Positions 1 to 18,996 of a DNA stretch of 62,415 nucleotides are shown here, in pieces. This stretch comes from a virus (taxonomy: Duplodnaviria; Caudoviricetes): positions 1 to 62,415 of IMG/VR virus record IMGVR_UViG_3300042314_001286; one strand, given 5' to 3'. The notes below the pieces were generated by a model, which saw only the letters and a list, made by a program, of their open reading frames with translations, had not been told where the DNA came from and did no database searches. Each line of letters starts with the position of its first letter. Position 1 is the stretch's first letter. Both the position numbers and the translations under genes were made by a program.

Positions 1-81
1 GCTAATTCATATTGATATTCGTCTTCGCCTTCCTGCGTGGCAGTATAGTCTTCGCGTTCCGGCGCATTGTAGTTACCCATA
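1..81. repeat. 81-bp terminal direct repeat (copy 1); circular-assembly overlap
   Basis: Identical to 62335-62415. Confidence 0.97.
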
Positions 82-200
82 ACATCTTCCATTCCTTCCA
101 ATGGTAGTTGCGAAAACCATGCGTTTAGGTACAAATGTAATTCGTCTGCTTGCTGTTGTATTTTGTTCAACACTAGCGATACTTTTTCCGTATTTTCCAT
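1..200 (-). CDS. 5' part of a hypothetical early protein spanning the circular junction (continues to 62184; about 116 aa, MENTEKVSLVL...MGNYNAPER...)
   Basis: Open frame from ATG at 200 runs in frame into ORF 62184..62414; TAAATTTG box at 228-235 upstream. Confidence 0.8.
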   Translation of the reverse strand, partial: MENTEKVSLVLNKIQQQADELHLYLNAWFSQLPLEGMEDVMGNYNAPEREDYTATQEGEDEYQYEL

Positions 201-294
201 ATGATATTTTTGATTGATTGGTTTAAACAAATTTAATAATTAGGTGATAAGTGGCAGTAAATACGCGACGAATCACCCAATTGTGTAGACGAAA

Positions 295-693
295 CTATCC
301 GTACACGACTTCGCCCATGGTAGCCAATTGAAAAAATACGTCGTCGTCGTCCGCGTCATTCTCTTCAGCTAGTATACGCTCCAGAAATTCCGGGTATTTT
401 TCCGCCATTAACTCGAGCGCCTTAAGCATTGACGCCTGTGTGACGTCCCCTAGGAAGTCCATTTCTTCCGGATCTTCGGCGCTTTCTATATCGTAAATAG
501 GTAGCTTAAATTCTGTATTCGTGTAGAGTTGTTCGGCTATGTTCTCCGCCATTGAAATGCCCCGACGGAAGTTTGTTTTGTCCAAATCTCCAATGCAGTA
601 CCAATAATTTGAACCGCCTTCTAGGGCTCCGATGATAACGTTTTCAAAAATGTTTTGCTTGATTTCGATTGTTTTATTAATTGTGATTTCCAT
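295..693 (-). CDS. hypothetical acidic early protein
   Basis: 132-aa ORF; GALEGGSNYW and DVFFQLATMGEVVYG motifs; co-oriented with neighbours. Confidence 0.75.
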   Translation of the reverse strand: MEITINKTIEIKQNIFENVIIGALEGGSNYWYCIGDLDKTNFRRGISMAENIAEQLYTNTEFKLPIYDIESAEDPEEMDFLGDVTQASMLKALELMAEKYPEFLERILAEENDADDDDVFFQLATMGEVVYG

Positions 694-737
694 AAATAAT
701 TTAATTTAAAAAGTTAGGGCCGTTATGGCAGTTTGTT

Positions 738-995
738 TTAAAATCCGTCTTCGCGTTTGCGTTCTATTGCTTGTATTATTTCCGCTTCGCTCCAACCTTT
801 GGCGATTAATTCCGTACGATATTGTTCGTCCGTCATAATATCCAAGTCTTCGACGCCTATTATTTTCGTGCCGTATGCGTCGCCGGCTGTTACTTTCTTA
901 TACCAATTCGAAAAATGCCTTTCGTCTTCGAATGATTTCGTGAACGTCTTATATCTGTTTAGATATCCTCGCGTCGTAATGCTTTTATGTATCAT
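738..995 (-). CDS. hypothetical early protein
   Basis: 85-aa ORF overlapping the upstream gene by 4 nt. Confidence 0.65.
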   Translation of the reverse strand: MIHKSITTRGYLNRYKTFTKSFEDERHFSNWYKKVTAGDAYGTKIIGVEDLDIMTDEQYRTELIAKGWSEAEIIQAIERKREDGF

Positions 996-1300
996 TTTAC
1001 TAGGTAGTTTAATTCGTTTAGGATTGGTGCTATGTATTCCTGTAGCGTAAATAGTACGTCCGTTGGCGTGCTCAATTCTTCGGCTACATCTTCGCCGGCT
1101 TCCTCTATATCAAGTTGGGCCAATACAGAACGATTATAGTACACGTCACCTATTTGCCACGCTTCGTCTTCGTCGTCGCCGGCGTCGGAATAGTTCCCGA
1201 AATCTGTGTTTTCCACTAATTCGCCTATTAATACTTTTAGCTTCTCTTCGCGTAATTTGTACGCGTTTAGTTCGTCTTTTAATTGCTGTAAATTTTCCAT
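992..1300 (-). CDS. hypothetical acidic early protein
   Basis: 102-aa ORF, tightly packed. Confidence 0.7.
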   Translation of the reverse strand: MENLQQLKDELNAYKLREEKLKVLIGELVENTDFGNYSDAGDDEDEAWQIGDVYYNRSVLAQLDIEEAGEDVAEELSTPTDVLFTLQEYIAPILNELNYLVK

Positions 1301-1305
1301 ATGAT

Positions 1306-1578
1306 TTATTTTTTTAAGGTTTTATAGTTAAATAGTAAAGATTCAATAGTTAAAAATATATTAGTTAAATCGTCCCAATTATTATGCTTCACGTCGTCAA
1401 AATCTTCTAGTATTACGACGCTTCTAGTGTGGTACAAATCCGGCTCCCATGCATCTACCATATTTTTAGATAGCTTCGCTTCCATTTGCCTAACTTCTTT
1501 TTTCAGTAGCTTGATTCCGGCGTTTTGGTTTTCAATGTACTTTTGTAATTCCTCAATTTTGTTTTGTAAATTTTCCAT
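1306..1578 (-). CDS. hypothetical coiled-coil early protein (likely start MENLQNK)
   Basis: N-terminus resembles that of 992..1300 (MENLQQL). Confidence 0.65.
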   Translation of the reverse strand: MENLQNKIEELQKYIENQNAGIKLLKKEVRQMEAKLSKNMVDAWEPDLYHTRSVVILEDFDDVKHNNWDDLTNIFLTIESLLFNYKTLKK

Positions 1579-1622
1579 TTTATAAAAGTTTAGCGCCGGG
1601 AATTTCACCCGGCTTGATTAGA

Positions 1623-2363
1623 TTATTTTACTACGAATTTGCTCGCGCTCTTCTTTGCTTTACCTTTTGCTTTTAAGCCTAGGATTTTACCGGCTTCCAA
1701 TGTTAGCATAATATCGTCGGCTTCGTCTCCATTAATTACCGGCGCTCCTAGGTACGTTTCCGGGAATGGCTTCGCTTCGTCAAATACTACAGATATAGGG
1801 CCGTATTTAAGCGCTTCAATGCATTCCGCTTCATTATCTTCTGAACGTGAAAACGTTAATTTGTAACGGGTGCCGGCGTACTTTTTTACTTTGCCTAAAA
1901 TCTTCGTGTAGTCATAAAATTCTAGGTTTGTAAACGCTTCCAATACGTCGACGCTAAACCGGTTTTTTAATATGGCGATAAAATCTAAATCTGAAGTACC
2001 ATTTAAACGAACTGCAATTTTAGAATTTTGGCGCTTTGCTTTTTTGTCTAGGCGCGTTAATTCATTCATTAACATATTTAAAAATCCGTTTCTATCATGC
2101 AAGTAAAATTCTGTTCGTCGCGTCCGTCCGGCTTGTACGGGTGCCATAACTCCGCGTCCGCTAGTGTAAAGGCATAATTTAGTACATTCAATCGATGCCT
2201 TTGGACAAAGATTTTTGCCTAGGCTGTTTTGATTAAATGGATTTAAATACAGGATATAACTTTCCAAAAAGTTTTTAGCTAGTTTGGCGTTACTGTCTCC
2301 TTTGCTTAAAAGGTTTTTAGCTATTTCTAAAATTTGTCCGTTTGAAGTTTTAATTGTTTTCAT
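1623..2363 (-). CDS. GP88-family (radical-SAM-like, Cys-motif) protein
   Basis: CPKASIECTKLCL, VRLNGTSD, FYDYTK, LTFSRSE and GLKAKG motifs match my recollection of the phage GP88 family. Confidence 0.75.
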   Translation of the reverse strand: MKTIKTSNGQILEIAKNLLSKGDSNAKLAKNFLESYILYLNPFNQNSLGKNLCPKASIECTKLCLYTSGRGVMAPVQAGRTRRTEFYLHDRNGFLNMLMNELTRLDKKAKRQNSKIAVRLNGTSDLDFIAILKNRFSVDVLEAFTNLEFYDYTKILGKVKKYAGTRYKLTFSRSEDNEAECIEALKYGPISVVFDEAKPFPETYLGAPVINGDEADDIMLTLEAGKILGLKAKGKAKKSASKFVVK

Positions 2364-2407
2364 GATTGATTTGATTGATTGATTTGATTAAATATTGATT
2401 GATTGAA

Positions 2408-2593
2408 TTATTTTTTAATTAATAAACTCCCGGAAAAAATAAATGATAATAAAACCGGAAGCGTGAAGACTAAAATAGCTACTAAATTTTCCGTCGGATA
2501 AGTTTCTGTATTCAATTGATATCCGATAACAGATAAAGCAAGTAAAGACGTAATAAATAAAATCGTTTGGAATACTGTTTGAAGCGTTTTCAT
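2408..2593 (-). CDS. small two-TM membrane protein, first gene of leftward early unit
   Basis: Two hydrophobic segments; likely start MKTLQT. Confidence 0.55.
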   Translation of the reverse strand: MKTLQTVFQTILFITSLLALSVIGYQLNTETYPTENLVAILVFTLPVLLSFIFSGSLLIKK

Positions 2594-3110
2594 ATTGTTT
2601 TGTTTAATTGTGTGCCACAAAGTAAAGCAATAGGTTTATACTATGCAAGCATTTTAATACTAAAAATTATTTAACGGTATGTTTTTTTTATGCAATGTTT
2701 GTTTAAATAATGTATGGCGCATTTTACTTTTTTAAATATTTTAGAAAGGGAAGAAGATTTGAGGCGGATAATAGTCTTCGCGCCTTGCCTTGCTTTGCAT
2801 AATATTTTCGCGAAGTCAAACCGAAATAGGGTTTTCCTTTTTGGTTTATGGTGCCAAAAAAAATAGTGTTTATCGATCATTATATTTTTCAGGAAATTAT
2901 GTTTAAACGTACCTATTTTAGCCGGCTTGAATTTTGGAATTTGAATTTAAGAAAGGAAAGGTACCCGGTTTGAAATTTGCGTTTCACTATCTGTAGCGCC
3001 GGGGCCGGCAGAAAATCTATAACCTTCTTTACACAACCGCACGCAACTTTTTTTTGTTAATTAGGGTTTTTTAGTATAACTTTAGGTTGATAAACCAGAC
3101 AATAACAAAT

Positions 3111-3752
3111 ATGCTTAGTTACGACATCAGTCAGGCGTCGCCTAATACAGTCATTGTAGAGGTAGGTAAATCCCTCGAGGATACAGTTACTTTTGGAGGA
3201 ATGACTCTTCACATAGATCCCGAATTCAACCCCACCCATCACGCTAGAATATACGGTAGAGTGGTGGCAATACCTGCGGGAAATATATACGACTTTAACG
3301 GCAATCAGATCCACGAAGAGGTTCGTGTTGGGGACTTAGTATACTTTCATTATTTAACGACGTCAGATGAGAGCAATTGCATTTATGGGAATTATTATAG
3401 AGTCCCTTATTGTTGGATTTTTTGTACTATCAGGGATGGCTTTATTCTACCTGTTGGCGGGTGGACTTTATGTGATCAGGTTGTTGAAGAAAAATTTGAT
3501 GAGGTTGAAGTTGATGGTTCAAAAATTAGTGCGGTACTAAGTGAATCTGGATTGGTGGTAGGTTTGAACAAAAAATCTTCAGTAAAATATGCAACATTAG
3601 CTCATATTGGGAAGCCATTTGTTGGAGTTGATGAGTTAGGAATAGAATCTGGGGACAAAATTATCCTTGCCAAAAATTCCAACTTTGTCAATAAGATTGA
3701 AGGAATCGATTATTATACGGTAAGGCAAGAGGATATACTTGGCAAAGTATAG
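3111..3752 (+). CDS. tandem GroES-like co-chaperonin
   Basis: GRVVAIP...EVRVGDLVYFHY and SESGLVV...GIESGDKIIL...YYTVRQEDILGKV both resemble Cpn10 folds; likely start MLSYD. Confidence 0.7.
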   Translation: MLSYDISQASPNTVIVEVGKSLEDTVTFGGMTLHIDPEFNPTHHARIYGRVVAIPAGNIYDFNGNQIHEEVRVGDLVYFHYLTTSDESNCIYGNYYRVPYCWIFCTIRDGFILPVGGWTLCDQVVEEKFDEVEVDGSKISAVLSESGLVVGLNKKSSVKYATLAHIGKPFVGVDELGIESGDKIILAKNSNFVNKIEGIDYYTVRQEDILGKV

Positions 3753-3975
3753 GTACCCCCTGCTAGATTCTAGAGGGAGGGGGTATGCTAGATTTGTGGG
3801 GGAGGGGGGTATGCCAGATTTCAGAGGGGGGTATGCTAGATTTGTGACCCCCCCCTGCCAGATTTCTGGCACATATAATTAAATATATAATAAGAGTTAA
3901 TAATAAAAAATATATTGCAAATTATTTTCAAATTATTTTCAGTTATTTTTTCAGAGTAGAAACGAAGTTTCTGCT
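3753..3975 (+). repeat. origin-like iteron array (5 direct TGCYAGATT plus 1 inverted half), AT-rich tract and GAA-loop hairpin; second copy of the initiator-gene origin
   Basis: TGCYAGATT at 3761, 3786, 3812, 3834, 3856; shares TGCYAGATTTGTGGGGGAGGGGGG and the CTGGCACATATAAT flank with 59960-60091. Confidence 0.85.
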
Positions 3976-4041
3976 AGTAGCCAAAAAAGAAAAAAATGGG
4001 TAGGACGCCGCGCGCCGATGCCCGCCAAACAATTAAATACT

Positions 4042-4602
4042 ATGGCAATATTTTCGGATAGCGAGTTTGATAACTTAGCATTACCCATTAGAGAAAAGGA
4101 TCTTCATAAGCACCCTACTACAAAGCATATTTTTGGGAGCATTACTGCTTCAGAGGTGCCTGTTATAAAGTACGTTGCTTTGTTATATGATGTTAAGAGT
4201 CCGATGCGACTAAAGATTCCTGATGTGGATATGCGTAAGGAGGAGTGTGCTGAGATGTCAGAGTTAAAAGATGGCAAAGAGGATATCTTTAATCTAAGCA
4301 ACGATAAAATACTGGGCTATATAAACTCCTATCTTAAGTTCCAATCGTCTAAGGTGTGGGCAGTATTGACGGCTAACGAGGAGGTGTTATGGCAGTATCA
4401 GCAAGAGTTGTTAACTCCTATCAAAGACTTTAAGAATGATAAGGATAAGTTACAGGCTTTGGATATGAAGAGTAAGTTAATGAATGAATGTGATTCTATT
4501 ATTCGCAGGATTGAATCTTATGAGGAGAAGTTGTTTGGTGACAATCATCAAGAGAAGGATAAGATTATAAACTACACACCAGAAACAATTGCTAATATAT
4601 AG
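4042..4602 (+). CDS. putative terminase small subunit
   Basis: Directly upstream of the large terminase; helical with coiled-coil C-terminus; positional inference only. Confidence 0.5.
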   Translation: MAIFSDSEFDNLALPIREKDLHKHPTTKHIFGSITASEVPVIKYVALLYDVKSPMRLKIPDVDMRKEECAEMSELKDGKEDIFNLSNDKILGYINSYLKFQSSKVWAVLTANEEVLWQYQQELLTPIKDFKNDKDKLQALDMKSKLMNECDSIIRRIESYEEKLFGDNHQEKDKIINYTPETIANI

Positions 4603-4605
4603 GTT

Positions 4606-6615
4606 ATGTACAGAAAGCATAAAAGAAATAGGGAGTTGTTGATTAATGGCATTACGGTAAACTTGCCACCTAATGGTGTTGTATGGAATGTAATGACTAA
4701 TCAATGGGAAGAAAGGGAGATTGCTAGGCGTAGTGCTAAACCGGCATACTGTTACTGGGAACGTCCTTCGCCGCCGGCTGACTACGAGACAAAGCGTAAG
4801 AAGGAGATCGCGGCGCAGAGAACTAATCCCGAGCATTATAATCCGGAGCTACAAGCGTACAGGAATCAGGAGTGGGACAGAAGGCTTAATGGATTTTGGT
4901 TTATGAATAATAATAGTGGGGTTTATATTACCGGGCTTCATTATTTTTATTTAACTCATTGGAAGCTAGATGTTGGATATCCTGAGTTTAGAGCAACTGA
5001 TAGGGATTTCTTTTATTTCCTAGAGTACGTTGTTCAGGATCCTAATTGTTTAGGAATGGTTGAGGTGACTAAGCGTCGCCAAGGAAAGACAATGCGGGCT
5101 GGATGTTTCCTATACGACTTGCCTTCTAGAAGCAAGAATAAGAATGCGGGTATCCAGTCAAAGACAGAGTCGGATGCTAAAGATAACGTATTTGCTAAGG
5201 GGGTGATTATGCCATTTAAGTACCTACCCGATTTTTTTGTTCCAATTTACGATACGGAAAAAGGACTCACCCCCAAATCAGAATTGCGTTTTTTTAAGAC
5301 AAACAAGAGGGGTGCCATAGAAGACATCTTTGAAAATAAAATTGAGCTAGAAAGCTCTATTGGTTTTAGGGGTTCTGATAAATTTTCTTATGATGGATTG
5401 AAACTTCATAGATATGTAGGTGATGAGGTTGGTAAAACGATTAACGTTAACGTATATGAAAGGCATCAAGTCGTGCAATTCTGTTTACAACAGGAAGAGA
5501 ACATTATTGGCAAAGCTCTTTATACTACAACCGTTGAAGAAATGGAAAACGGTGGGGAGCACTTCAAAGAATTATGGATGGCGTCAGATCAAAAAAAGAA
5601 AAATGCTAACGGACGTACAAAGACTGGTTTGTATCAGTATTTTACTCCGGCGTATAAAACGCTTTTCTATGATAAGTATGGTTATGCCGATGAGGATAAA
5701 GCCAAGACGTTTTACTTGGAAGAACGTAAAGCCTTAGAAGACGATCCCCGCGCGCTGGCTTCTTATATAAGAAAGAATCCATTTACAATTGAGGAGGCAT
5801 TCTTCTCTGAAGGAGAGACTTGTTTGTATGATGCTATGAAAATCAACAAACAAATGGAAACCATTACTTGGATTGATCAAAAAGAGTTATATTTGCGCGG
5901 TGAATTCATTTGGGAAAATGGAGAGCGCGACAGTAGGGTAATTTTTAAGGAGACATCTAATGGCAAGTTTTTAGTTCACGCTAAATGCAACCCACACGAT
6001 CATAACTTTTACAATCAAGTAAGGGAGTATGGGACAAAGAAGGTGCCTGATGCGAATAAAAAATATGCAATAGCTGTCGATCCATTTGATCATAATATTA
6101 CATCTTCTAAGGAACGCTCTGACGGGGCGGCATATGTGTATAGAAGATTTGATGCAATGGATGCAATGAGTGAAACATTCTTAGTAGAATATATTAACCG
6201 CCCAGATAAAGCGGAGATATTCTATGAAGATATGATTAAGTTGGTTCATTTCTTTGGATGCGAAATACTTTCCGAGGATAATAAAGTTGGACTTATAAAA
6301 TATTTTGAGTATCGTGGCTACGATAAATTCCTAACAAGAATGCCGGGGGCAACCAAGTATGGGATCTCTGCTACGACAAAAACGCACCAACAGATAGCTG
6401 AACAAACAGAAACTTACATAGAGGAAAATATACACAAGGTTGTGTTTAAAAATCTTTTACAGGATTGGTTGCTGTTTGATATAAATAAAACCACTAAATT
6501 TGATGCGGCGATGGCAAGTGGCTATACTTTGATTGCGGCAAGTAACTCAAAGTTTGCACAGAAAGTCGAACAAAAAACAAACTTATATGAAATACGAGAT
6601 GTATTTCCTTTTTAA
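4606..6615 (+). CDS. terL: terminase large subunit
   Basis: Walker A-like KRRQGKT, Walker B YVGDEVGK, nuclease motifs IAVDPFD, SDGA, FDAAMASG; followed by portal. Confidence 0.92.
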   Translation: MYRKHKRNRELLINGITVNLPPNGVVWNVMTNQWEEREIARRSAKPAYCYWERPSPPADYETKRKKEIAAQRTNPEHYNPELQAYRNQEWDRRLNGFWFMNNNSGVYITGLHYFYLTHWKLDVGYPEFRATDRDFFYFLEYVVQDPNCLGMVEVTKRRQGKTMRAGCFLYDLPSRSKNKNAGIQSKTESDAKDNVFAKGVIMPFKYLPDFFVPIYDTEKGLTPKSELRFFKTNKRGAIEDIFENKIELESSIGFRGSDKFSYDGLKLHRYVGDEVGKTINVNVYERHQVVQFCLQQEENIIGKALYTTTVEEMENGGEHFKELWMASDQKKKNANGRTKTGLYQYFTPAYKTLFYDKYGYADEDKAKTFYLEERKALEDDPRALASYIRKNPFTIEEAFFSEGETCLYDAMKINKQMETITWIDQKELYLRGEFIWENGERDSRVIFKETSNGKFLVHAKCNPHDHNFYNQVREYGTKKVPDANKKYAIAVDPFDHNITSSKERSDGAAYVYRRFDAMDAMSETFLVEYINRPDKAEIFYEDMIKLVHFFGCEILSEDNKVGLIKYFEYRGYDKFLTRMPGATKYGISATTKTHQQIAEQTETYIEENIHKVVFKNLLQDWLLFDINKTTKFDAAMASGYTLIAASNSKFAQKVEQKTNLYEIRDVFPF

Positions 6616-6618
6616 GAT

Positions 6619-8919
6619 ATGGATACTAACAATGTAGATTTGCTTCACGGCTTTCCCAGCCACACTATTGACAACTCGCTAAAGAACAAAGCTTGGATCG
6701 CCCAGTATATTAAATCCGCTTGGCAAGACTACAACAAGTATTATCCAAATCAGCTATACAACGGACGTGATAATTACCACGAGGTTAAGTTGTATATGTT
6801 AGGAAAGCAGTCTATTACGCCATATCGTAAGTTATTGCACCCTAGAGACACCGCTAACGCAGATTCTTCGTGGGCCAACATATCGTGGGACATCCTCCCT
6901 ATTATTCCAAAATTTAGACGTATTGCTATTGCAACGTTAGCTAAGGCTGATTATAACATCTCTATTGATGCAATTGATCCTTTAGCACAAGACGATAAAG
7001 CTTCTTTCTATAAAGAAAACGCGGCAAGAATTATTGTAAGAAATGAACTTGCAACTCAAGGACTTGATCCTGAACTTGTTCCTGAGCCAGAAGTGGAAGC
7101 AGAAACAATTAAGGAGCTTGATATGTATATGGAGTATTCCTATAAGCATAGAATGGCTGTAGAGATGGAGCAGGCTTTAAAATTGATTATGAATGTTAAT
7201 CAGTTTGAACAAGAAGCTGCTCTTACTATCGAAGACTTACATGATCATGGTATTGCTGGTTTCAAAGAATACTTTGATGCAGGAGGAAACATTAAGATTC
7301 GTCGCGTTAACGTAAACAATCTTGTTACTTCTTATTCTAACTCACCTACCTTTGACGACGTGCAATATGTTGGAGAGGTTCTTGAGATGACAATTGCTGA
7401 TTTAAAAGAGATTGCCGGCGACGAAATTACGCAAGCGCAATACGAAATGATTGCAGAAAAGTACACAACAAAACTTAGCAATCCAGCATCTGTTAAGATG
7501 GATAACTCTAATCAAAATAGAAACGTTGACGGATTCCGTATACGCGTTCTAGATCTTGAGTTTTATTCAATTAACAGCATGATTCTTGAGGAAAGAGTTA
7601 ACTCAAAAGGAAACAAAGTTGTGGGCCGCGCTAGTAAGTTGAAGCAAAACAAGAGCGGTAAAGAATATTCAAAGACAGATTATAAAGTAGTTTATCAAGG
7701 TAAGTGGGTTATTGACAGCGATATATTCTTTGATTGCAAATTGCAAACAAATATGAAGCGCGCAAAGTCTTCTTTAACGGATACTAAGTTAAGCTACCAT
7801 ATTGTTGCTCCTAATGTTTACCAAATGAGTACATACTCTATTGGTGAGCAAATGAAGCCTATTGCCGATCAGATTCAATTAGCTTGGTACAAGTTGCAGA
7901 ACGTTATGTTGCGCGCACGTCCAAGAGGTATTATGATTGAGTTGGGTGCGTTAGAAAACGTACCGTTAGGACGTGGAGGAAAGGCACTTAAGCCTATGGA
8001 TATTATTGACTTGTACAACCAGACGGGTAACTTAGTTTACCGCCGTCTAGATGATGCAGGACAAGCAAGTAATTACAAACCAATTGAAGAGTTAGATAAT
8101 GGTATTGGTAACGAGGCGACTCAATACTTTAATATCATTAATCAAAATATACAGATGCTTCGTGAGATCTTAGGATTCAATGAAGTAACTGACGGATCAA
8201 CACCAGATCCTCGTATGTTGAATGGAGTAGCTAAGTTAGCATCTGAGTCAACAAACAACTCATTAGACTATATCAAACGTGCGCAAAGAAACTTGATCGA
8301 ACGTTTATGCTATAACTTGACTCTTCGTATTCAGGATGCTGCACTTAACGGAAAGATCGAAGGGTATACGCGCGCGCTAGGAAGTAACTCAGTAAACTTC
8401 TTTAAGTTAGATCCAAATGTATCTGCTTATGAATGTGGCTTAGTGGTTACGCAAAAGCCTAATGAGTTTGAAAAAGAAAAACTTGCAAGACGTATTGACT
8501 TGGCAATTCAATCTAATCAGATCACCTTAGCAGATGCTATGATGATTGAGAATGTTGAGAATGTTAAGTACGCCGAAGTTCTTTTGGGCCACAAGATCAA
8601 AAAGAACCTAGAGGAGGCAGACAAGCGTTCAATGATGCAACAACAAATGAATGCTCAAGTACAACAGCAATCCGCAATGGTTGCAGAGCAAGCTAAACAA
8701 CAGACAATCCAGATTGAAACACAATCTAAGATGCAGTTGATTCAGCTTGAGAAAGAACTTGATGCGCAATTAATTACTACCAAATTACAACTTGAAGCAC
8801 AAATTCAACAAATGGTAGTAGAAGGTAAAATTAATATGAGTCAAATTGAGGCTTCTAGCCGCGAATATATCGCTCAAATTAAAAAAGCTGAAACTAGAAT
8901 TAAAGAATCTAAGAAATAG
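6619..8919 (+). CDS. portal protein (podovirus-type, long coiled-coil C-terminal barrel)
   Basis: 766 aa after terL; LPIIPKF and ILGFNEVTDGSTP motifs; Gln-rich helical C-terminus. Confidence 0.85.
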   Translation: MDTNNVDLLHGFPSHTIDNSLKNKAWIAQYIKSAWQDYNKYYPNQLYNGRDNYHEVKLYMLGKQSITPYRKLLHPRDTANADSSWANISWDILPIIPKFRRIAIATLAKADYNISIDAIDPLAQDDKASFYKENAARIIVRNELATQGLDPELVPEPEVEAETIKELDMYMEYSYKHRMAVEMEQALKLIMNVNQFEQEAALTIEDLHDHGIAGFKEYFDAGGNIKIRRVNVNNLVTSYSNSPTFDDVQYVGEVLEMTIADLKEIAGDEITQAQYEMIAEKYTTKLSNPASVKMDNSNQNRNVDGFRIRVLDLEFYSINSMILEERVNSKGNKVVGRASKLKQNKSGKEYSKTDYKVVYQGKWVIDSDIFFDCKLQTNMKRAKSSLTDTKLSYHIVAPNVYQMSTYSIGEQMKPIADQIQLAWYKLQNVMLRARPRGIMIELGALENVPLGRGGKALKPMDIIDLYNQTGNLVYRRLDDAGQASNYKPIEELDNGIGNEATQYFNIINQNIQMLREILGFNEVTDGSTPDPRMLNGVAKLASESTNNSLDYIKRAQRNLIERLCYNLTLRIQDAALNGKIEGYTRALGSNSVNFFKLDPNVSAYECGLVVTQKPNEFEKEKLARRIDLAIQSNQITLADAMMIENVENVKYAEVLLGHKIKKNLEEADKRSMMQQQMNAQVQQQSAMVAEQAKQQTIQIETQSKMQLIQLEKELDAQLITTKLQLEAQIQQMVVEGKINMSQIEASSREYIAQIKKAETRIKESKK

Positions 8920-8923
8920 TTTT

Positions 8924-8931
8924 TAGATTTG
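8924..8931 (+). promoter_or_regulatory. Bacteroidota -7 promoter box TAGATTTG
   Basis: Matches TAnnTTTG; intergenic, 20 nt upstream of ATG 8952. Confidence 0.6.
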
Positions 8932-8951
8932 CACCAACCAAACAATTAACA

Positions 8952-10028
8952 ATGGAAGAGAACAGTATAAACTTAGACGAATTATTACCAGATAATAACG
9001 TTGAACAAAGCGAGCCAAGAGATATCACGCCGACGTCAGAACAAGTTGCTAACGAAGATGTTACGACTGAAGACGAAGGAATTGATGATACTGTTGAAAA
9101 TGAGATTCCTAACGAGGAATCTATTATAGATGAAGATATTACAGAAGGCTTAGGTGAAACTACCGAAGTTACTGAGGAATTTATCCCAGAAGAGGAGACT
9201 CCTTATGTTCCAGAAGAAAGCACAGCGCCTGAGCCGACTGAATATAAATTTAAGGATGACTTCATTAAGAAGGCTGTAGACTATTACGAGACGTACGGTA
9301 CACTACAACCATACTTAGAAGCGACGAAAGTCAATTATGACGAAGTTGACGATTTGGAAGTATTGAAAATGAATTTCGATAAAGAAAATTCAGATTTAAG
9401 TCCAAAGGTTAAACAACGTCTTTTTGAAAAACAAATCGAGAAGTACAACCTTGATGCATTTGATGAGGACGATTTAGAAGTTGGGCAAGCATTGTTGAAG
9501 CGAGATGCAAACAAGCTTAGATCTAATTTAAAGGAAGAGCAAAAGCAATTCCTAGAAAGTATCCAGCCTAATCAAACGGCGTCACAACCACAGTATTCAC
9601 AAGAAGAGCTAGAAGCCGAAATGGAGATTAGCAGAAAGATTGTGGAAAATGGAGTATCTGGTGTTATAAAAGACAACCTAATTAAAATAGAGGCAAACGG
9701 AGAAGGTATTAACTACCAGATTCCAAACGCCAACAAGGTTGTTGATTATGCATTAGACTCAACAAAGTTTTTATCGACATTTGCTGGCGCAGATGGACAG
9801 ATTAATTGGGATAAATGGACAAAAGTAGTTGCATTCGCTGAGAATCCAACTTTATTTATAAGTGAACTAATTAAGCATGGCAAATCGCTAGGCAGAAAAA
9901 CGATGGAGGCTGAGTTGAAAAACGTAGCCCCTATGGCAAAGTCTAAAGACATTATCGAAACAACAGGATCTGATAGTCCTTATGATAATCCGGTAGACTT
10001 TTTAAGAGGGATGACTGTAAGAAAATAA
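8952..10028 (+). CDS. putative capsid scaffolding protein
   Basis: Very acidic, low-complexity N-terminus; lies between portal and major capsid gene. Confidence 0.65.
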   Translation: MEENSINLDELLPDNNVEQSEPRDITPTSEQVANEDVTTEDEGIDDTVENEIPNEESIIDEDITEGLGETTEVTEEFIPEEETPYVPEESTAPEPTEYKFKDDFIKKAVDYYETYGTLQPYLEATKVNYDEVDDLEVLKMNFDKENSDLSPKVKQRLFEKQIEKYNLDAFDEDDLEVGQALLKRDANKLRSNLKEEQKQFLESIQPNQTASQPQYSQEELEAEMEISRKIVENGVSGVIKDNLIKIEANGEGINYQIPNANKVVDYALDSTKFLSTFAGADGQINWDKWTKVVAFAENPTLFISELIKHGKSLGRKTMEAELKNVAPMAKSKDIIETTGSDSPYDNPVDFLRGMTVRK

Positions 10029-10056
10029 GTTATTCACAAGTTAAATTTTATTAAAT

Positions 10057-11388
10057 ATGGCTATTGCAGCAGGTAATATCGATCGTACCTTTTTATCGAC
10101 GGTATCTTTCACAAACACGCTAGAGCAGCGTGAAATTTTAAAGGACGTTCTTGACATCTATGATGAGGAAGCGTCTATGCTTGACGTATTAGACTGGACT
10201 GGCAAATCTAAAGCTACAGCTCAGACTGAATACTTTACTGTACAAAACAACTTCTTGTATGCTACTGCTACAGTTAAGACTCCGGGTACTTCTGCGGGTT
10301 CTGCTGGTGCTTCTGTAGACATCACTTGCGTTGGCGCAACTTCTGTTAAGCCTGTAGTAGGTGAATTGATGTTGTTCGCTAACGGTGTTGTAGGTTATGT
10401 ATCAGCTGTTTCTAACGCAACTGACTTTGTTATTACTGTTAAGCCTGTTAACTCTGCTGACGCAATCCCTGCGGCTGCAACTGGAGCGAAATTATCTTTC
10501 TTCTCTAATGCATATGCTGAAGGTACTGGTTCTAACCAAATGCGTAAGTCTGATTTGATCAAGCGTTCTAACAAGCTTCAAATCTTCAAAACTAAGACTT
10601 CTGTTACAGATATCGCTTACGGTTCTAAGATTGAGGTTGAATTCAAAGGCAAGCCTTACTACTTCTTAAAGCAGCAGCATGATGCGTATTTGAAGCACCG
10701 TATGGATATCCTTTACTCTGTATTGTTTGGACGTGAGTCAGCTGGTTTGACTGATGCTTCTGGTAACGCTATCAACACAACTCGTGGTTTACGCGATACT
10801 ATCATCAACGCAGGTGGTATTACTTCTTCTACTGCTACTGGTGGTACTTTGTTATTGTCTGACTTAGCTGCATTATCTCGCTTGATGGATGCTAACCGTT
10901 GCCCTTCAGAATACCAATTGTGGGCTGGTGCTGACTTTGATAACTCTTTTGACACTCAAATCACAGGAGCTACTCAATTCATCAATGGTGCTGTTAACTA
11001 TGCTTCTTACGGTGGTAAGAAAGACGTAGCTATCGCTATGGGAGTTCAATCTCTATCTGCTTTCGGACGTACTTTCCACAAGAAGCGTCTTAACGCATTG
11101 TCTCATCCACAAATTACTTCTACTGCAACTAACGTAAACTACACTAAAGAAGCTTACTTAGTTCCTGCTGGAAAGATCAAGGTTGAGCAAGGTGGTGGAC
11201 AAGTAGATCGTATGATGTTACGTTACTTAGAAATGCCAGATGGCTTAAACAGCCGTTTCCGCGAGAAATTATTGGGTGGACTTGCTCCAACTCCAACTTC
11301 AGATACTGATACACTTGATATCGTGTACAGCTCAATCGAAGGTTTGGAGACTGTGGGTAATGAGCACTTCATTAAGTACAATATCTAA
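10057..11388 (+). CDS. major capsid protein
   Basis: 443 aa; strongly biased high-expression codon usage; AYAEGT, NKLQIFK, LFG and TTRGL motifs of HK97-fold capsids; followed by a terminator. Confidence 0.88.
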   Translation: MAIAAGNIDRTFLSTVSFTNTLEQREILKDVLDIYDEEASMLDVLDWTGKSKATAQTEYFTVQNNFLYATATVKTPGTSAGSAGASVDITCVGATSVKPVVGELMLFANGVVGYVSAVSNATDFVITVKPVNSADAIPAAATGAKLSFFSNAYAEGTGSNQMRKSDLIKRSNKLQIFKTKTSVTDIAYGSKIEVEFKGKPYYFLKQQHDAYLKHRMDILYSVLFGRESAGLTDASGNAINTTRGLRDTIINAGGITSSTATGGTLLLSDLAALSRLMDANRCPSEYQLWAGADFDNSFDTQITGATQFINGAVNYASYGGKKDVAIAMGVQSLSAFGRTFHKKRLNALSHPQITSTATNVNYTKEAYLVPAGKIKVEQGGGQVDRMMLRYLEMPDGLNSRFREKLLGGLAPTPTSDTDTLDIVYSSIEGLETVGNEHFIKYNI

Positions 11389-11404
11389 TTTTTTGTTGTT
11401 CAAG

Positions 11405-11435
11405 AAAAGGGGAGGAGAAATTCTCCCTTTTTTTT
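11405..11435 (+). terminator. intrinsic terminator after capsid gene
   Basis: AAAAGGGGAG...CTCCCTTTT stem followed by a T run. Confidence 0.8.
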
Positions 11436-11452
11436 GTTTAATATTTTTTATA

Positions 11453-11460
11453 TACATTTG
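11453..11460 (+). promoter_or_regulatory. Bacteroidota -7 promoter box TACATTTG
   Basis: TAnnTTTG immediately after the terminator, 20 nt before ATG 11481. Confidence 0.6.
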
Positions 11461-11480
11461 CGTAACCAAACAATAATAAA

Positions 11481-12296
11481 ATGAAAGCATCAGAATACAA
11501 TCAGTTGTCCGACGAAATGGTTCGGAAACTAAAGCATGATGAGCGTGCAACTTATAGAATTTTAAATGTACGCCCTGATCCAGATAACTACGGCAAGTTT
11601 TTACTTCCGGCAGCATACCAGATTCCATCGACGGACATCGTTTACGACAAAGGAAAAGGAGATTTTGTCACTATTGCAGCGATCGAGCGTCAAGATAATG
11701 AAGGGAATGCTGTTTTCTTAAATATTGTCTTTACTGCTAATAATCTTGGATATATGTTTTTGGACGGCAAGAATCCTGCACACCAAAAGATCTACCAATT
11801 CTTAGAGTTAAGTAATTTCAATCAATCTAACCCTAATAGAAACACAGATAACGAGGCTGTATTTTATCGTGTGGATAGCAAAAAAGAGGCTCAAGTTGAG
11901 CGTTCTACTCGTAAGTTAATTGTTCGCGCGGTTAATTTGGCTATTGAGTTAGATGATAAGAAAGCTCGTGAAGTAGCAATGGCTTTAGGTATTGAAGCTG
12001 AAAGCATTGATGAGACGCGTAATGCTTTAGAGGATTATGCAGAAGACAATCCAGAAGAGTTTTTGGATGTTGTGGATCGCGCAAGTTTAGCAAATGAAAC
12101 AATGTTGAAGGATGCTGTTAAGAAAGGTATCATTAAAAACAACATTGGTGCAAGCCAATTTGAGTGGGCCGAAACTGGTAAAGAAATTTTCAAATACAAA
12201 AAAGCTCCGAACAAGAATTACTTTAAGGAGTTAGCGGAATACCTCGAAGAAAACAATCTAGATGAGCTTAATGCCATCAAGAGTCGCATAGACTAG
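11481..12296 (+). CDS. conserved virion/assembly protein downstream of capsid gene
   Basis: 271-aa ORF with its own promoter box and terminator. Confidence 0.6.
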   Translation: MKASEYNQLSDEMVRKLKHDERATYRILNVRPDPDNYGKFLLPAAYQIPSTDIVYDKGKGDFVTIAAIERQDNEGNAVFLNIVFTANNLGYMFLDGKNPAHQKIYQFLELSNFNQSNPNRNTDNEAVFYRVDSKKEAQVERSTRKLIVRAVNLAIELDDKKAREVAMALGIEAESIDETRNALEDYAEDNPEEFLDVVDRASLANETMLKDAVKKGIIKNNIGASQFEWAETGKEIFKYKKAPNKNYFKELAEYLEENNLDELNAIKSRID

Positions 12297-12335
12297 ATCC
12301 GTCACAGGATTGATTGTTTGGTTGAGGTTGTAAAG

Positions 12336-12367
12336 AAGGAGAGCATATTGTTCTCCTTTCTTTTTTT
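12336..12367 (+). terminator. intrinsic terminator
   Basis: AAGGAGAGCA-TAT-TGTTCTCCTT followed by a T run. Confidence 0.75.
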
Positions 12368-12381
12368 ATGAGAAAAATAAC

Positions 12382-12389
12382 TATCTTTG
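12382..12389 (+). promoter_or_regulatory. Bacteroidota -7 promoter box TATCTTTG
   Basis: TAnnTTTG upstream of ATG 12414. Confidence 0.55.
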
Positions 12390-12413
12390 AGGCAAAACTA
12401 TTCTCGCTTTAAA

Positions 12414-15400
12414 ATGGCAGTTAACTTTAGCGTTCAATTCAGGATAAACGAAAAAACTCAATCACGAGTTTTACGCCTTACAGATACTTCAACTGGGTTT
12501 ACTTTTGGAAAAGGTAACTTCTCGGTTACATTCTCAGATGGTTCTACTCGAATCAAGACTGACTTTTCTACGCCTGATATTTCTGCTTCTGGCGGATTTG
12601 TAGATATCAATCTGGTGACAGATAGTGCAGGAGTAGTTAATACAGGCACCTACAAGGTAGACTATGTTGCGCTAGACACTTCTTTAGCAGGATATTCTTT
12701 ATCAAGAACTTTCGACTTTAACTGGGTTAAGCCAACTAAGAATATTGTTAGCGGAACTGATGTTTTAGTGCCTGAAGTTAAATTCTTAGATAACACATCT
12801 TACTCGCCGGCAGGCAGCTTTACTGGAACATTAACCCGTACTTTTAGTACATTAATGCCTAGTAATACGCCACAATCTGGCACAAACGTTATTGGTGTAG
12901 GCAACTTAATTGACCCAATATTTGCGGGAAAATACTACGAAGGGATATATACTGCCAAGTCAGATGTTTCTGTTAGCTACACACATACAAGCAACTCTTG
13001 GTTAACAGTATTTTATACAGACTTACTGCAAGAGATTATTGACGTTAGACGCGCCCCTACGCAGACGCAGTTAATTGGGTTTATGAATACTTATCACGCT
13101 ATTATTACGGCGTATGAAGATAATAATGATACTCAATTTAATTTATTAAATGAGCAATACGACTTAGTAGTTTCATTATACTCGCATCTTATTGCAAGAT
13201 ATGAATCTGGCACATTAGATGGTTCTGAGCCATTGCTCAGTCAGTTAATTGACATTTTGCGTCCATATAATACACATACTTACACGGCAGTTCCTTTGGC
13301 TCCGTTTACTTTAGATGCAATCGGTACAGCTGGCTTTTTATTATCAGATGGCACTATTACGGATAACTTTTTCCTAGGGGAAACATTAAGATTTGCATCT
13401 AATAGTACAGCATTAACTCCTGTTGTTACGAATAACTCTGTTTCGTTTAATCCTACTTTTGGGGTTACACCTAACACGTTTGCTTCTGGTAGCGATAGTC
13501 GTTTCCATGACCCTGTAACATTAGGTATTAATCAAAACGGCTTATCTCTTTCTACGCAGCAATTATCATTGGCCTTAGCTACGACAAGTACTGCTGGTTC
13601 AATGAGCCCTGTTGATAAAGCTAAATTAGATACTGTTGCTCCCGGCGCACAAATTGGTACAGTTACAAGTATTGGCATTAGTATGCCATCTGCGTTTACT
13701 GTTAGCAACTCTCCAGTAGCAACTTCTGGAACAATTGCAATTACAGCAAATGGTTTGTCTACGGAATTTATTCGAGGAGATGGCGCTACAGGGAACTTTA
13801 ATTCAGTTGCTAGAACAGCTATTAGCTTAACTACTACTGGAACGGCTGGTGCTGCTACATATAATTCTACTACGGGTGTTTTAAATATTCCTCAATATGT
13901 AGGCGGCGTCACAAGTTTTAATACTAGAACAGGTGCTATTACACTTACTTCTGGCGATGTAACTACCGCTTTAACATTTACCCCTTATAATGCGACTAAT
14001 CCTAGTAATTTTATTGCATTAACAGCTTTATCCGCAGGAACAGGTATATCTTATAACAACACTACAGGTGTTATTACAAATACAATTACTCAGTACACAG
14101 ATGCGTTAGCAAGACTTGCGATATCATTAACTACTACTGGAGTATCTGGTGCGGCCACATATAATTCCACTACAGGGGTTTTAAATATACCTATATACGA
14201 AGGTGGAGTTACAAGTTTTAACACTCGCACGGGCGCTATTGTATTAACATCAGGTGACGTTACAGGGGCGTTAGGATTTACCCCTTACAACGCAACTAAC
14301 CCTGCTGGATACACTACAAATGTAGGGACTGTTACATCTGTTGGTGGAACAGGAACCGTTAGTGGATTAACTTTAACAGGGACAGTAACTACCTCAGGAG
14401 ACTTAACGCTAGGAGGCACTTTATCTTTAACGTCAGGCAATATTACAAGCGGATTAGGGTTCACACCTGAAGACGCAAATAATAAGGGCGTAGCGGGCGG
14501 TTATGCAAGCCTAGATGGCAGCGGATTGGTTCCGTCTACACAACTTCCTTCTTATGTAGATGATGTATTAGAATATACTAACTTAGCTGGCTTTCCTGCA
14601 ACAGGTGCTACTGGAAAAATTTACGTTGCATTAGATAATAATAAAATATATCGTTGGAGTGGTTCTGCTTACATAGAAGTTTCTCCTACAGTTGGGACTA
14701 TCTGGGGTGGCATTACGGGTACGCTTGCTAATCAAACTGACTTGCAGTCGGCTTTAGATGCAAAGCAAGATGATATTACATTAACTACTACAGGAACAAG
14801 TGGAGCTGCTACATTTATTGGCAACACATTAAATATCCCTCAGTATCAAGGCGGAGTTACAAGCTTTAATACTAGAACTGGTGCAATTACGTTGTCATCT
14901 ACAGATATTACAGATGCTTTAACATTCACTCCTTACAACGCAACTAACCCTAGCGCATATATTGCTTTAACAGCCCTAAGCGCAGGAACTGGAATATCTT
15001 ACAATAATACTACTGGTGTAATAAGCTCTACGATTACTCAATATACAGACGCGTTATCAAGAGCTGCAATAAGTTTAACTACTACAGGAACATCTGGATC
15101 GGCAACTTATAATTCAAGCACAGGTGTACTAAATATTCCTTCTTATGAAGGTGGGGTTGCAAGCTTTAATACTAGGACAGGAGCGGTTACGCTTACTAGC
15201 TCTGATGTTACTACTGCGTTAACATTTACTCCTTATAATGCTACTAACCCTAGCAACTATATTGCTTTATCAGCTCTGTCTGCTTCCGCTCCATTGTCAT
15301 ATAACAATACTACAGGAGCATTTAGTATAGCACAAGCTAACGGATCAACTAACGGATTCTTATCTTCTACTGATTGGACAACCTTTAATAGCAAGCAAAA

Positions 15401-17579: not shown

Positions 17580-17580
17580 G

Positions 17581-18555
17581 ATGCCATTACAGACTTCAGG
17601 TGCTATAACTATTAACCAAATTCGAATCGAACTAAGCTCGGGTTCTTATTCCCTTCGTACATTAAGTGCGGCAGCAGGAAAAGGTACGCCCGATTCCATG
17701 AGTGAATTCTACGGATTTGCCAACACAATGACAATCTCTTTACTTGTACAAGCTGCTGGAGGAGGCGGTGGTGGCGGTTGGCCCGGAGGAGGAGGAGGAG
17801 GAGGCGCTGGCGCCCATTATCACGCTTCTTCTTACACAATAAACAGAGGAACATCTTACGGTATTTCTGTAGGAGGAGGTGGGGCTACTATTGGTTCGGC
17901 TTGGGTTGATGATGATTACAGAGGTGCAAATGGGGGTAATTCAACTTTTGGTGGAATTACAATGTATGGTGGCGGAGGAGGTGGCTCAGGAGAAGGTAGT
18001 TTTGCTGCTTCAAATTTTGGGTATGCTTCATCTGGAGGATGTGGTGGAGGTGGAGGAATTAATCAAAACCAAGGAAATAATGGTGGTGCAGCAGTACCTA
18101 ATGGAGGAAATGGAAGAAACGGAGGACACGCAACTACCCAACAAGGAGGCGGTGGAGGTGGAGGAACCGGACTAGAGGGAGCTCCTTCAGACTTCGAAAA
18201 AGGAGGTTGGGGTGGAAATGGTAGACAAATTGGTGAATTTGGAAACGAGTATTATGGAGGCGGTGGAGCTGGAGGAACTTGGACGTGGGCCTATTCTAAT
18301 ACAGGAGGAGTTGGCGGCGGTGGTGCTGGTGGAGGAGGAGAAACTATTGCCTCTCAACCGGGTGTCGCAGGATACGGCGGTGGCGGTGGCGGTATTGGAC
18401 ACGTTGGAGGATGTTGCCGTAACGGTAATGGAGGCTCTGGTTCGGTACGGATTAGATATGCTGGAGGGCAAGTGCTTTCAGGAGGTAATAGTGTTTACGG
18501 TAGCGGAGGGTATACATATCACATTTTTACAAGTTCAGGAACTTTATATACATAA
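17581..18555 (+). CDS. glycine-rich fibre-tip adhesin (gp38-like)
   Basis: Follows an S74-bearing fibre; polyglycine tracts separated by variable loops; MPLQTSGAITINQIRIEL...MSEFYG N-terminus. Confidence 0.7.
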   Translation: MPLQTSGAITINQIRIELSSGSYSLRTLSAAAGKGTPDSMSEFYGFANTMTISLLVQAAGGGGGGGWPGGGGGGGAGAHYHASSYTINRGTSYGISVGGGGATIGSAWVDDDYRGANGGNSTFGGITMYGGGGGGSGEGSFAASNFGYASSGGCGGGGGINQNQGNNGGAAVPNGGNGRNGGHATTQQGGGGGGGTGLEGAPSDFEKGGWGGNGRQIGEFGNEYYGGGGAGGTWTWAYSNTGGVGGGGAGGGGETIASQPGVAGYGGGGGGIGHVGGCCRNGNGGSGSVRIRYAGGQVLSGGNSVYGSGGYTYHIFTSSGTLYT

Positions 18556-18556
18556 T

Positions 18557-18976
18557 ATGGCTCATTTTGCAAAAATTGACGAGAATAATATTGTAATAGA
18601 TATAGTCAGAGTCCCTGATGATCAGGAGAATCGTGGGTCAGAATATATGCACGAAATAGGATTCCCGGGTAGATATATTCAGACTTCCTATAATACTTAT
18701 GGTAATACACACCTGTATGGAGATATCCCGCTCAGGGGAAATTATGCAGCCATAGGTGGTATATACGATCCTGAATTAGATGTTTTTTACAGCAAGCGTC
18801 CTAATGAGGATATGATATTAAATCTAAGTACATATCAATGGGAGTACCCAATACCTGTACCTGATAACTTATCTTATACACAAATTCCAAAATGGAATAA
18901 ACAAACCAAAAGCTGGGATATTTTGGACATGAAGGATCTACTTACAGAGTTACCAACACCCCAAGGAATACAATAG
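18557..18976 (+). CDS. conserved phage protein (MAHFA...QTSYN...RGNYAAIGGIYD) typical beside glycine-rich tail proteins
   Basis: ATG 1 nt after the upstream stop; recognisable motif set. Confidence 0.7.
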   Translation: MAHFAKIDENNIVIDIVRVPDDQENRGSEYMHEIGFPGRYIQTSYNTYGNTHLYGDIPLRGNYAAIGGIYDPELDVFYSKRPNEDMILNLSTYQWEYPIPVPDNLSYTQIPKWNKQTKSWDILDMKDLLTELPTPQGIQ

Positions 18977-18996
18977 TTATATAAAACCAACATTCT

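Follow-up and report, generated by a model that had tools for sequence, protein, structure and literature searches.

In the 62,415-nucleotide (nt) record of a lake phage of the class Caudoviricetes (IMG/VR record IMGVR_UViG_3300042314_001286, positions 1 to 62,415; hereafter the window), the segment at 3753–3975 is, by homology, a second and non-coding copy of the putative replication-origin cassette that lies inside the gene for the replication initiator (59950–60091). The phage is uncultured, as is its host. The second copy is placed between a GroES-like gene and the open reading frame (ORF) that stands where the small terminase gene, terS, is expected, and hence at the head of the packaging genes. 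The winged-helix domain of the initiator very likely binds both copies, as suggested by the co-variation of the two repeat arrays among relatives. It is also probable, though we say this with less assurance, that the terS-proximal copy is an origin-type site resembling oriR of phage SPP1, which would act as a second origin and/or as a place of fork arrest and promote the switch to concatemer synthesis at the head of the packaging operon. Overall, the data favour an origin-type site and weigh against a terminase site.

Organization of the two cassettes

The two cassettes and the initiator gene consist of the following features, numbered as in the window.

59662–60357, minus strand: replication initiator, 231 amino acids (HTH_36, E 1.5e-9; phrog_270, E 4.4e-27)
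60001–60091, minus strand: in-gene iteron array, four boxes forming two inverted pairs, with G-rich spacers; encodes a repeated linker peptide
59950–60000, minus strand: in-gene AT-rich flank, which codes for HIIRDNNKGNNKQII and is homologous to 3872–3912
3753–3871, plus strand: terS-proximal iteron array, five TGCYAGATT boxes and an inverted half-box, with G/C runs between the boxes
3872–3954, plus strand: AT-rich flank, contiguous with the last box and a candidate DNA-unwinding element (DUE); its first ~45 nt are homologous to the in-gene flank
3955–3975, plus strand: hairpin with a 9-base-pair (bp) stem and a GAA loop (folding free energy as DNA −5.2 kcal/mol, z score −2.1)
3976–4041, plus strand: A-rich run, GC-rich element (3998–4026) and short leader to the start of the terS-like ORF, conserved whatever the box type

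The boxes of the terS-proximal array start at 3761, 3786, 3812, 3834 and 3856 on the plus strand (spacing 25/26/22/22). The last of them is a full palindrome, TGCCAGA-TT-TCTGGCA (3856–3871), and the inverted half-box is therefore at 3865–3871. The AT-rich tract that follows contains an 11-nt repeat (3913–3928 and 3924–3939) and is succeeded by the hairpin. Array, tract and hairpin were thus all found as an earlier note on the window had described them. A count of the slightly relaxed word TGCYAGATY gave 12 occurrences in the window against 2.48 ± 1.51 expected, a number that was reached in 0 of 100 shuffles. Five of these belong to the terS-proximal array and three to the initiator gene (60001 and 60046 on the plus strand, 60075 on the minus strand); the remaining four (12874, 13204, 21840 and 29568) are isolated, have no G/C runs around them and fit chance.

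Within the initiator gene the boxes occupy 60001–60011, 60028–60037, 60046–60056 and 60073–60083, and the spacer GTGGGGGAGGGGGG is found at 3796–3809 as well as at 60011–60024 and 60056–60069. A blastn search with 3700–4020 against the whole record returned 59959–60037 on the minus strand (79% identity, E 6.5e-11), together with 60001–60058 and 60039–60091 on the plus strand (82%, E 4e-10 and 3e-9). The minus-strand match spans the last boxes and ~45 nt of the AT-rich flank, so that the cassette as a whole occurs twice, the copies being inverted relative to each other. The homology is limited to the boxes and this flank and never extends into the domain-coding parts of the initiator gene. These matches bear out the earlier note in its claim that box and spacer recur inside the initiator gene, and equally in the likeness of the flanks that it had implied from a comparison of translated peptides.

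Measured across the record ends, the two arrays are ~6.0 kilobases (kb) apart, with early genes between them and with their AT-rich flanks facing outward, again as proposed beforehand. The difference in box geometry that the same note had pointed out, with direct repeats in the terS-proximal copy and two inverted pairs in the gene, was also confirmed. Each copy is co-oriented with its surroundings; local transcription, as read from the sequence, passes from the boxes into the AT-rich tract.

Alignment of the initiators revealed an N-terminal winged-helix domain (HTH_36, matched in seven of the seven aligned proteins), a conserved C-terminal domain and, between the two, a hypervariable linker for which the iterons code. 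The window initiator gave no match to Pfam Phage_rep_O at E ≤ 0.1, and just one of the seven initiators did match this family (E 2.8e-4); the 'O-like' families phrog_678 and phrog_391 match the window protein weakly (E 2.6e-5 and 8e-4). The linker peptides encoded by the iterons are lineage-specific, being PPSPT.LA in the window and GGATIVS, GGDAIQS, FENR, QTVRK or ENPTL in relatives, and these repeats are followed by an N/K-rich stretch coded by the AT-rich tract.

Assembly and conservation in relatives

A misassembly, which the earlier note had named as a possible ground for refutation, could be ruled out with contigs taken from four metagenome runs on lake water, none of which is flagged as a possible source of the record. 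The left neighbour and the array are joined in contigs covering 3000–3778, 3000–3828 and 3000–3833, and the array and the terS-like gene in contigs covering 3761–4079, 3787–4976 and 3813–5000, so that both junctions of the array are bridged independently. The bridging contigs differ from the window by 0 or 1 letter, and they break inside the repeat, as is expected of short-word assembly. One independent metagenome contig (run X10) has an extra C at position 3847, in the C-run between boxes 4 and 5, an instance of length variation in a homopolymer spacer.

Relatives were collected as 95 IMG/VR loci from searches with the initiator, with terL and with an alignment of initiators, the last of these contributing the best 80 of 162 relatives. 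The presence of a second copy was assessed by blastn-short of the initiator ORF against the rest of its locus at E ≤ 1e-3, in the 22 close-clade loci that extend 8.4 kb or more upstream of the initiator (11 close loci with less than 5 kb of flank were left out). In 19 of the 22 a second copy was detected, at one other place, 6.7–10 kb upstream. The match was to the opposite strand in 18 of these 19; in L051, which has palindromic boxes, it was to the same strand, but the AT-rich flank is inverted, and by this flank the copies are inverted in the window and in all relatives. The matching boxes of L035 were missed by blast and recovered by eye and from 10 shared 10-mers, whereas the second copies of L029 and L031 were located in the whole records, in the former 10.7 kb away and outside the locus and in the latter at the other end of the record. 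An extra record, L013, whose initiator is not matched by the window protein in its N-terminal part, has a 91-nt match between its copies at 87% identity. With the window included, all 24 records that allowed a test therefore had both copies, and had them in the same two positions. Wherever a locus includes both neighbours, the second copy is bounded by the GroES-like stop on one side and by the terS-like start on the other; in L011, L028 and L032 it adjoins the GroES-like stop at the edge of the locus.

A sister clade, whose terL is 61% identical, presents a natural negative control, having neither the initiator nor the array. An initiator of this family was found in none of its three records (87–91% complete), and no array was seen in the two GroES–terS intervals scanned. 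These intervals hold one or two extra ORFs instead (L016, 1520–2570; L017, 8330–9300). Lacking an initiator of this family, the sister clade must use another replication module.

Co-variation of the arrays with the initiator

The box words are unrelated between lineages, and in each genome the same word is found at both places. The words by lineage, in which L numbers designate relatives, are given below; a GTGAGA type is among the words seen.

Window: TGCYAGATT
L007: TAGTGAGA..TCTCACTA
L011: CACATTAGCA
L013: TTCGAAAATCGAAC
L014: GTAGGATTTCTGAC
L015: TGCTACTATAGTATCA
L019: TGATGCTATACAATCA
L041: TGGTGT..ACACCA
L042: TGGTAAAA..TTACCA
L044: TGCCCCT..AGGGACA
L051: TTGGAAAATCCAA

L015 and L019 differ from each other at a few box positions, and even here the two copies of each genome carry the same variant. 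Arrays were compared in a matrix of 12 lineages, one representative each, using only 10-mers with at least three G/C so that the common AT-rich flank would not count. The in-gene array matched its own terS-proximal array best in 12 of the 12 lineages, and the sum of shared 10-mers on the diagonal was 247, whereas permutation gave 30.3 on average and never more than 173 (100,000 permutations, none of which reached the observed sum). A Smith-Waterman matrix of own against other arrays, which is blurred by the shared AT-rich flank, placed the own pair first in 17 of 21 cases (ties counted) and second or third, among close kin, in the rest.

Array similarity was also correlated with protein similarity over 19 genomes. 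The Spearman coefficients were 0.74 for the N-terminal domain of the initiator, 0.62 for its C-terminal domain, 0.58 for the terS-like protein and 0.55 for the GroES-like protein, all of them inflated by shared ancestry. Individual pairs are more telling. Genomes whose terS-like proteins are 90–99% identical and whose initiator N-domains are 55–72% identical have array Jaccard indices of 0.01–0.11 (e.g., L035/L041, L042/L044 and L041/L042), and pairs with N-domains at least 96% identical have indices of 0.24–0.87. By these comparisons, it is the winged-helix domain predicted at the N terminus of the initiator, rather than the terS-like protein, that the arrays track. The proposals that relatives would keep a terS-proximal array, that its motif would follow the iterons of the same genome's initiator, and that one initiator recognizes two sites, the second being a non-coding origin copy in front of the packaging genes, have accordingly gained support from conservation and co-variation, the last of them as a prediction about binding.

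Origin-like properties of the terS-proximal copy

Duplex stability was calculated from nearest-neighbour energies in 60- and 80-nt windows. For both lengths, the least stable window of the whole genome starts at 3873, in the AT-rich flank of the terS-proximal copy. When non-overlapping 60-nt windows are ordered by instability, the in-gene flank comes ninth, within the top 0.16% of windows. Among the relatives, the terS-proximal flank holds rank 1–3 in 14 of 15 loci (first in nine), and the in-gene flank rank 2–37 in 14 of 15 and a rank beyond 40 in one. It is because this flank is the strongest unwinding-prone stretch in the genome that an origin-type site is favoured. Half-sites were also counted in both copies: in 15 of 16 lineages the non-coding copy equals or exceeds the in-gene one, and the lineage that departs from this is cut by a contig end.

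Downstream of the flank, the hairpin, the A-run and the GC-rich element stay similar across relatives despite the box changes, so that the gap is modular, with an origin cassette specific to the initiator followed by a late leader that is conserved. A hairpin is found at the same place in L007, L013, L014, L035 and L051, with a stem sequence that varies by lineage as judged by eye. The GC-rich element lies 16 nt before the terS-like start in a genome of 35–40% GC; its equivalent in relatives is a CCGCC-rich element of ~20–35 nt, near-identical in the closest ones and present with any box type. Possible roles for it are those of a cut site for packaging, a leader or an element of late transcription.

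The hairpin has no T-run after it on either strand and hence is not like an intrinsic terminator. An Rfam search of 3600–4200 at E ≤ 1 produced three sub-threshold chance matches and nothing more. Runs such as GGGGGAGGGGGG (3779–3809, 60011–60089) could form long-loop G-quadruplexes. As a conserved feature the G-quadruplex was rejected, since the long G-runs are lineage-specific and many relatives have C2–C4 runs or none.

Proposed function and alternative explanations

In the mechanism that we propose, a complex of the initiator at the terS-proximal copy would open the DNA and load the phage's own DnaB-type helicase, so that the site would fire as a second origin. A tight initiator–DNA complex at the same place may also arrest the fork that arrives from the in-gene origin; after such an arrest, the exonuclease and the RusA-type resolvase encoded by the phage could turn the replication of circles into the synthesis of concatemers at a point just before the packaging genes.

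Several observations weigh against this reading. Besides the inflation of the protein–array correlations mentioned above, they include the unlike geometry of the boxes in the two copies and the GC skew, which follows the two transcription arms and cannot separate which site fires. It is also conceivable that the AT-rich gap, which precedes a late operon, houses a promoter. Among distant relatives in the initiator family (at most 32% identity, or the C-domain only), none of the 14 loci that offer 8.8 kb or more of flank showed a second copy within ±10 kb, from which it follows that the second site is not a general need of the family; the 10-mer cluster scan of these loci has a heavy-tailed null (95th percentile 11, maximum 59), and their scores of 2–8 constitute no signal. 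Lastly, gene conversion, rather than selection through one protein, could help the concerted evolution of the copies. Selection is favoured over gene conversion because the box cores are kept while the spacers differ, in an informal comparison.

Other functions can be imagined for an array to which the initiator binds, and the earlier note had named titration or handcuffing, a late switch and a coupling to packaging beside a late origin, without choosing among them. It might be a late-gene switch or insulator, i.e., an operator or roadblock that separates the early rightward transcript, with the GroES-like gene, from the late operon of packaging and structural genes, in which case late expression would depend on the level of initiator or on fork passage. 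The location is apt, as in every relative the array marks precisely where the first rightward gene gives way to the terS-like–terL–portal operon and is followed by the conserved leader module of hairpin, A-run and GC-rich element, and the co-variation would fit any initiator-binding role. An operator, however, needs boxes only, whereas the lineage-specific homology reaches into the AT-rich flank, the most easily melted stretch of the genome. Moreover, neither consensus that was tried produced a promoter-like site in the gap, in scans that are weak: the one for sigma-70-type promoters and terminators gave five sites in 2600–4300 against 6.0 expected and none in the gap, and the Bacteroidota promoter pattern used for the other, TTTG..TAnnTTTG, occurs twice genome-wide against 2.99 expected and not in the gap. 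We consider a switch of this kind unlikely; it would be compatible with an origin role. Control of copy number by titration or handcuffing, with the extra iterons pairing with the in-gene origin through initiator bridges and thereby limiting or timing initiation much as the incA iterons of plasmid P1 or the crr of P4 do, appears to us somewhat less likely still. Two arrays of the same boxes 6–10 kb apart, kept through many specificity changes and with half-sites in the non-coding copy equal or more in number, are what it would call for, but control iterons are not known to need an unwinding element, whereas this copy has the strongest one in the genome, a lytic phage gains little by limiting its own replication, and the lack of a nearby second copy in the distant initiator relatives speaks against it as well.

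The position immediately upstream of the terS-like gene, with the conserved GC-rich element between array and ORF, brings to mind a packaging signal in which the repeats are sites for the small terminase subunit beside a cut site, similar to cosB and cosN of lambda. We regard this as highly improbable, given that nearly identical terS-like proteins stand beside unrelated box words, that the boxes match the initiator gene's own iterons instead, and that the sister clade has related terL and GroES-like genes and no array. Contig ends from the four runs scatter in the repeat (ends at 3778, 3828 and 3833; starts at 3761, 3787, 3813 and 3981), although contigs cannot show physical ends. There is hardly any probability left for a segment that has no function, whether as the decaying remnant of an initiator gene that was once duplicated or as an artefact that the repeats introduced into the assembly. 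The flank can indeed be read as a peptide resembling the initiator linker, but a gene fragment is at odds with homology that stops short of the domain-coding parts, with retention in place in all testable records and with box cores maintained through complete changes of word, and an artefact with the independent contigs across both junctions.

A bolder form of the origin-type reading, which we think improbable, is that of a split origin. Each inverted cassette would load a helicase for one unidirectional fork and serve its own arm, the early one leftward and the late one rightward, so that the genome would be replicated co-directionally with transcription. Alternatively or additionally, fork arrest at the terS-proximal copy would lead to a break beside the packaging genes and the conserved GC-rich element, and terminase would enter at this break. 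If true, such a break would be a physical link between the change of replication mode and the onset of packaging.

Genome context and neighbouring genes

The record is a circular assembly with an exact 81-nt terminal overlap, assigned by IMG/VR to the class of direct terminal repeats, and its unique length is 62,334 bp. The genome has two transcription arms. The leftward early arm runs from ~3000 across the record ends to 48606, and the rightward arm has the order GroES-like gene, 289-nt gap, terS-like ORF, terL and portal. The genes that bear on the present argument are the following.

3087–3752, plus strand: GroES-like gene, 221 amino acids, Cpn10 domain at residues 152–221 (Pfam Cpn10, E 2.7e-11; phrog_13932/3188)
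4042–4602, plus strand: terS-like ORF, 186 amino acids, directly upstream of terL and assigned by position only
4606–6615, plus strand: terL (phrog_6681, E 2.8e-83)
6619–8919, plus strand: portal (phrog_6547, E 1.9e-91)
58235–59671, minus strand: DnaB-type replicative helicase, directly downstream of the initiator (DnaB_C, E 7e-65; phrog_19, E 3.2e-62)
56933–57748, minus strand: PD-(D/E)XK exonuclease (PF12705, E 7.3e-8; phrog_298, E 6.7e-26)
49102–49491, minus strand: RusA-like Holliday-junction resolvase (phrog_4632, E 2.8e-8)

Synteny places the GroES-like gene first in the rightward arm and immediately to the left of the array in every relative. The ~150 N-terminal residues of its product that lie outside the Cpn10 domain have no match to anything, and the gene is also present in the sister clade without the array. 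The terS-like ORF matched no Pfam or PHROG family, and its atlas leads to small-terminase families were weak (score 0.79). Its start is 4042 and not 4018, i.e., 24 nt inside the longest ORF, and an M-A-I/L/T-F start is seen in 19 of 19 genomes. The exonuclease and the RusA-like resolvase may, by analogy with the SPP1 model described below, be equipment for recombination-dependent restart; no annealing protein was recognized among the 19 ORFs scanned. A 178-amino-acid ORF after the helicase gene (57699–58235, minus strand) has two CxxC pairs and no family match, and a similar CxxC-bearing ORF is located a few genes upstream of the initiator in L022 and L023.

No near-identical DNA match to positions 1–20000 was found among isolated phages. 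By terL the closest isolates are Flavobacterium and Cellulophaga phages (~32% identity), and by initiator the isolates compared are at most ~30% identical over most of the protein length. The host is probably a freshwater member of the Bacteroidota, judging from these terL-nearest isolates and from the presence of the phage in lake metagenome runs. Among the sequencing runs listed as containing the phage there was no RNA data set.

Comparison with known systems

The arrangement has its closest counterpart in SPP1, a precedent that the earlier note had not named. According to two sources (PMC6316719, PMC3485210), gene 38 of that phage contains oriL, and oriR is found ~13 kb from it, where the late region has a long stretch without coding sequence; both comprise repeats and an AT-rich DUE and are bound by gp38 (G38P), and in the model put forward there a fork from oriL stalls at the gp38–oriR complex, after which an exonuclease, a recombinase and a junction resolvase restart replication in a concatemer-forming mode. 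We used the SPP1 genome (NC_004166) as a positive control, and the self-match recovered nt 395–441 of gene 38 against 4901–4948 (87.5% identity, E 2.8e-5). This second copy, located between genes 7 and 8, is on the same strand at a distance of 12.9 kb around the circle, and in SPP1 too the homology continues from the repeats into the AT-rich tract.

The window phage thus resembles SPP1 in (i) having an origin cassette in the initiator gene and a non-coding copy in the late region, each with repeats followed by an AT-rich tract into which the homology extends, (ii) the co-orientation of each copy with local transcription, (iii) a DnaB-type helicase gene just downstream of the initiator, along with an encoded exonuclease and junction resolvase, and (iv) matches of the N-terminal parts of both initiators to phrog_428 (E 1.7e-10 for the window, 1.4e-48 for gp38) and phrog_186 (1.8e-6 and 1.2e-20). 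There are differences as well. The copies are inverted in the window phage and direct in SPP1, and their spacing is 6–10.7 kb in the window clade as opposed to ~13 kb. The second copy directly precedes the terS-like gene, whereas in SPP1 it comes after the terminase and portal genes. No separate gp39-like loader was identified in the window phage. Alignment of the initiator with gp38 was not significant (hhalign probability 0.8%, E 0.067), so the initiators are remote or unrelated. SPP1 is a Bacillus phage, unlike the window phage with its probable freshwater Bacteroidota host, and binding of the initiator has been shown for SPP1 and is predicted for the window phage.

Lambda has, to our knowledge, one ori and no distant second copy. 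In lambdoid gene O, iterons and an AT-rich tract lie mid-gene between the regions for an N-terminal DNA-binding domain and a C-terminal domain (PMC7466680). The window initiator is similar in its in-gene iterons within the linker-coding part, its G-tracts, hypervariable linker and N-terminal winged-helix domain, and in a specificity module that is swapped between relatives; it differs in that Phage_rep_O is matched by so few initiators of the clade and in that the helicase of the window phage is phage-encoded. Plasmid control iterons, such as P1 incA with its handcuffing, are outside the origin proper, co-evolve with the origin iterons and damp initiation, and they are not known to have a DUE. 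The terS-proximal copy, in contrast, abuts the most meltable tract of its genome and belongs to a lytic-type phage, not to a stably maintained replicon. In lambda cosB, R-boxes for the small terminase subunit lie next to cosN, forming an array immediately upstream of the small-terminase gene. The window phage likewise has a repeat array immediately upstream of its terS-like gene, but the boxes of its clade follow the initiator and not the terS-like protein. In P4, ori and crr are two separated clusters of the same initiator-binding repeats on one small replicon, the crr being required in cis with ori; the initiator, alpha, is a primase-helicase, and crr is not known to have an unwinding element. 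The occurrence of a crr and an ori in P4 is recorded in PMC9942202.

In the literature that we searched and read, experimental support for a second origin bound by the same initiator exists only for SPP1, where its role is still a model, and the searches on second phage origins or iterons and on Flavobacterium phage origins brought up no description of the present clade. What was already known is the SPP1-type dual origin, and what is reported here is a further case, with inverted copies and with the second directly before the packaging genes. The clade demonstrates selection for the two-site design, which is no peculiarity of a single phage. It amounts to a natural experiment, in which at least a dozen specificity variants of one initiator occur with two co-evolving sites at fixed places, and it supplies matched pairs of protein and site for specificity swaps. 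Given a host, the placement of the second site at the head of the packaging operon would make the proposed link between replication mode and packaging directly testable. For annotation, the case is a caution against taking every repeat array that precedes terminase genes for a pac or cos site.

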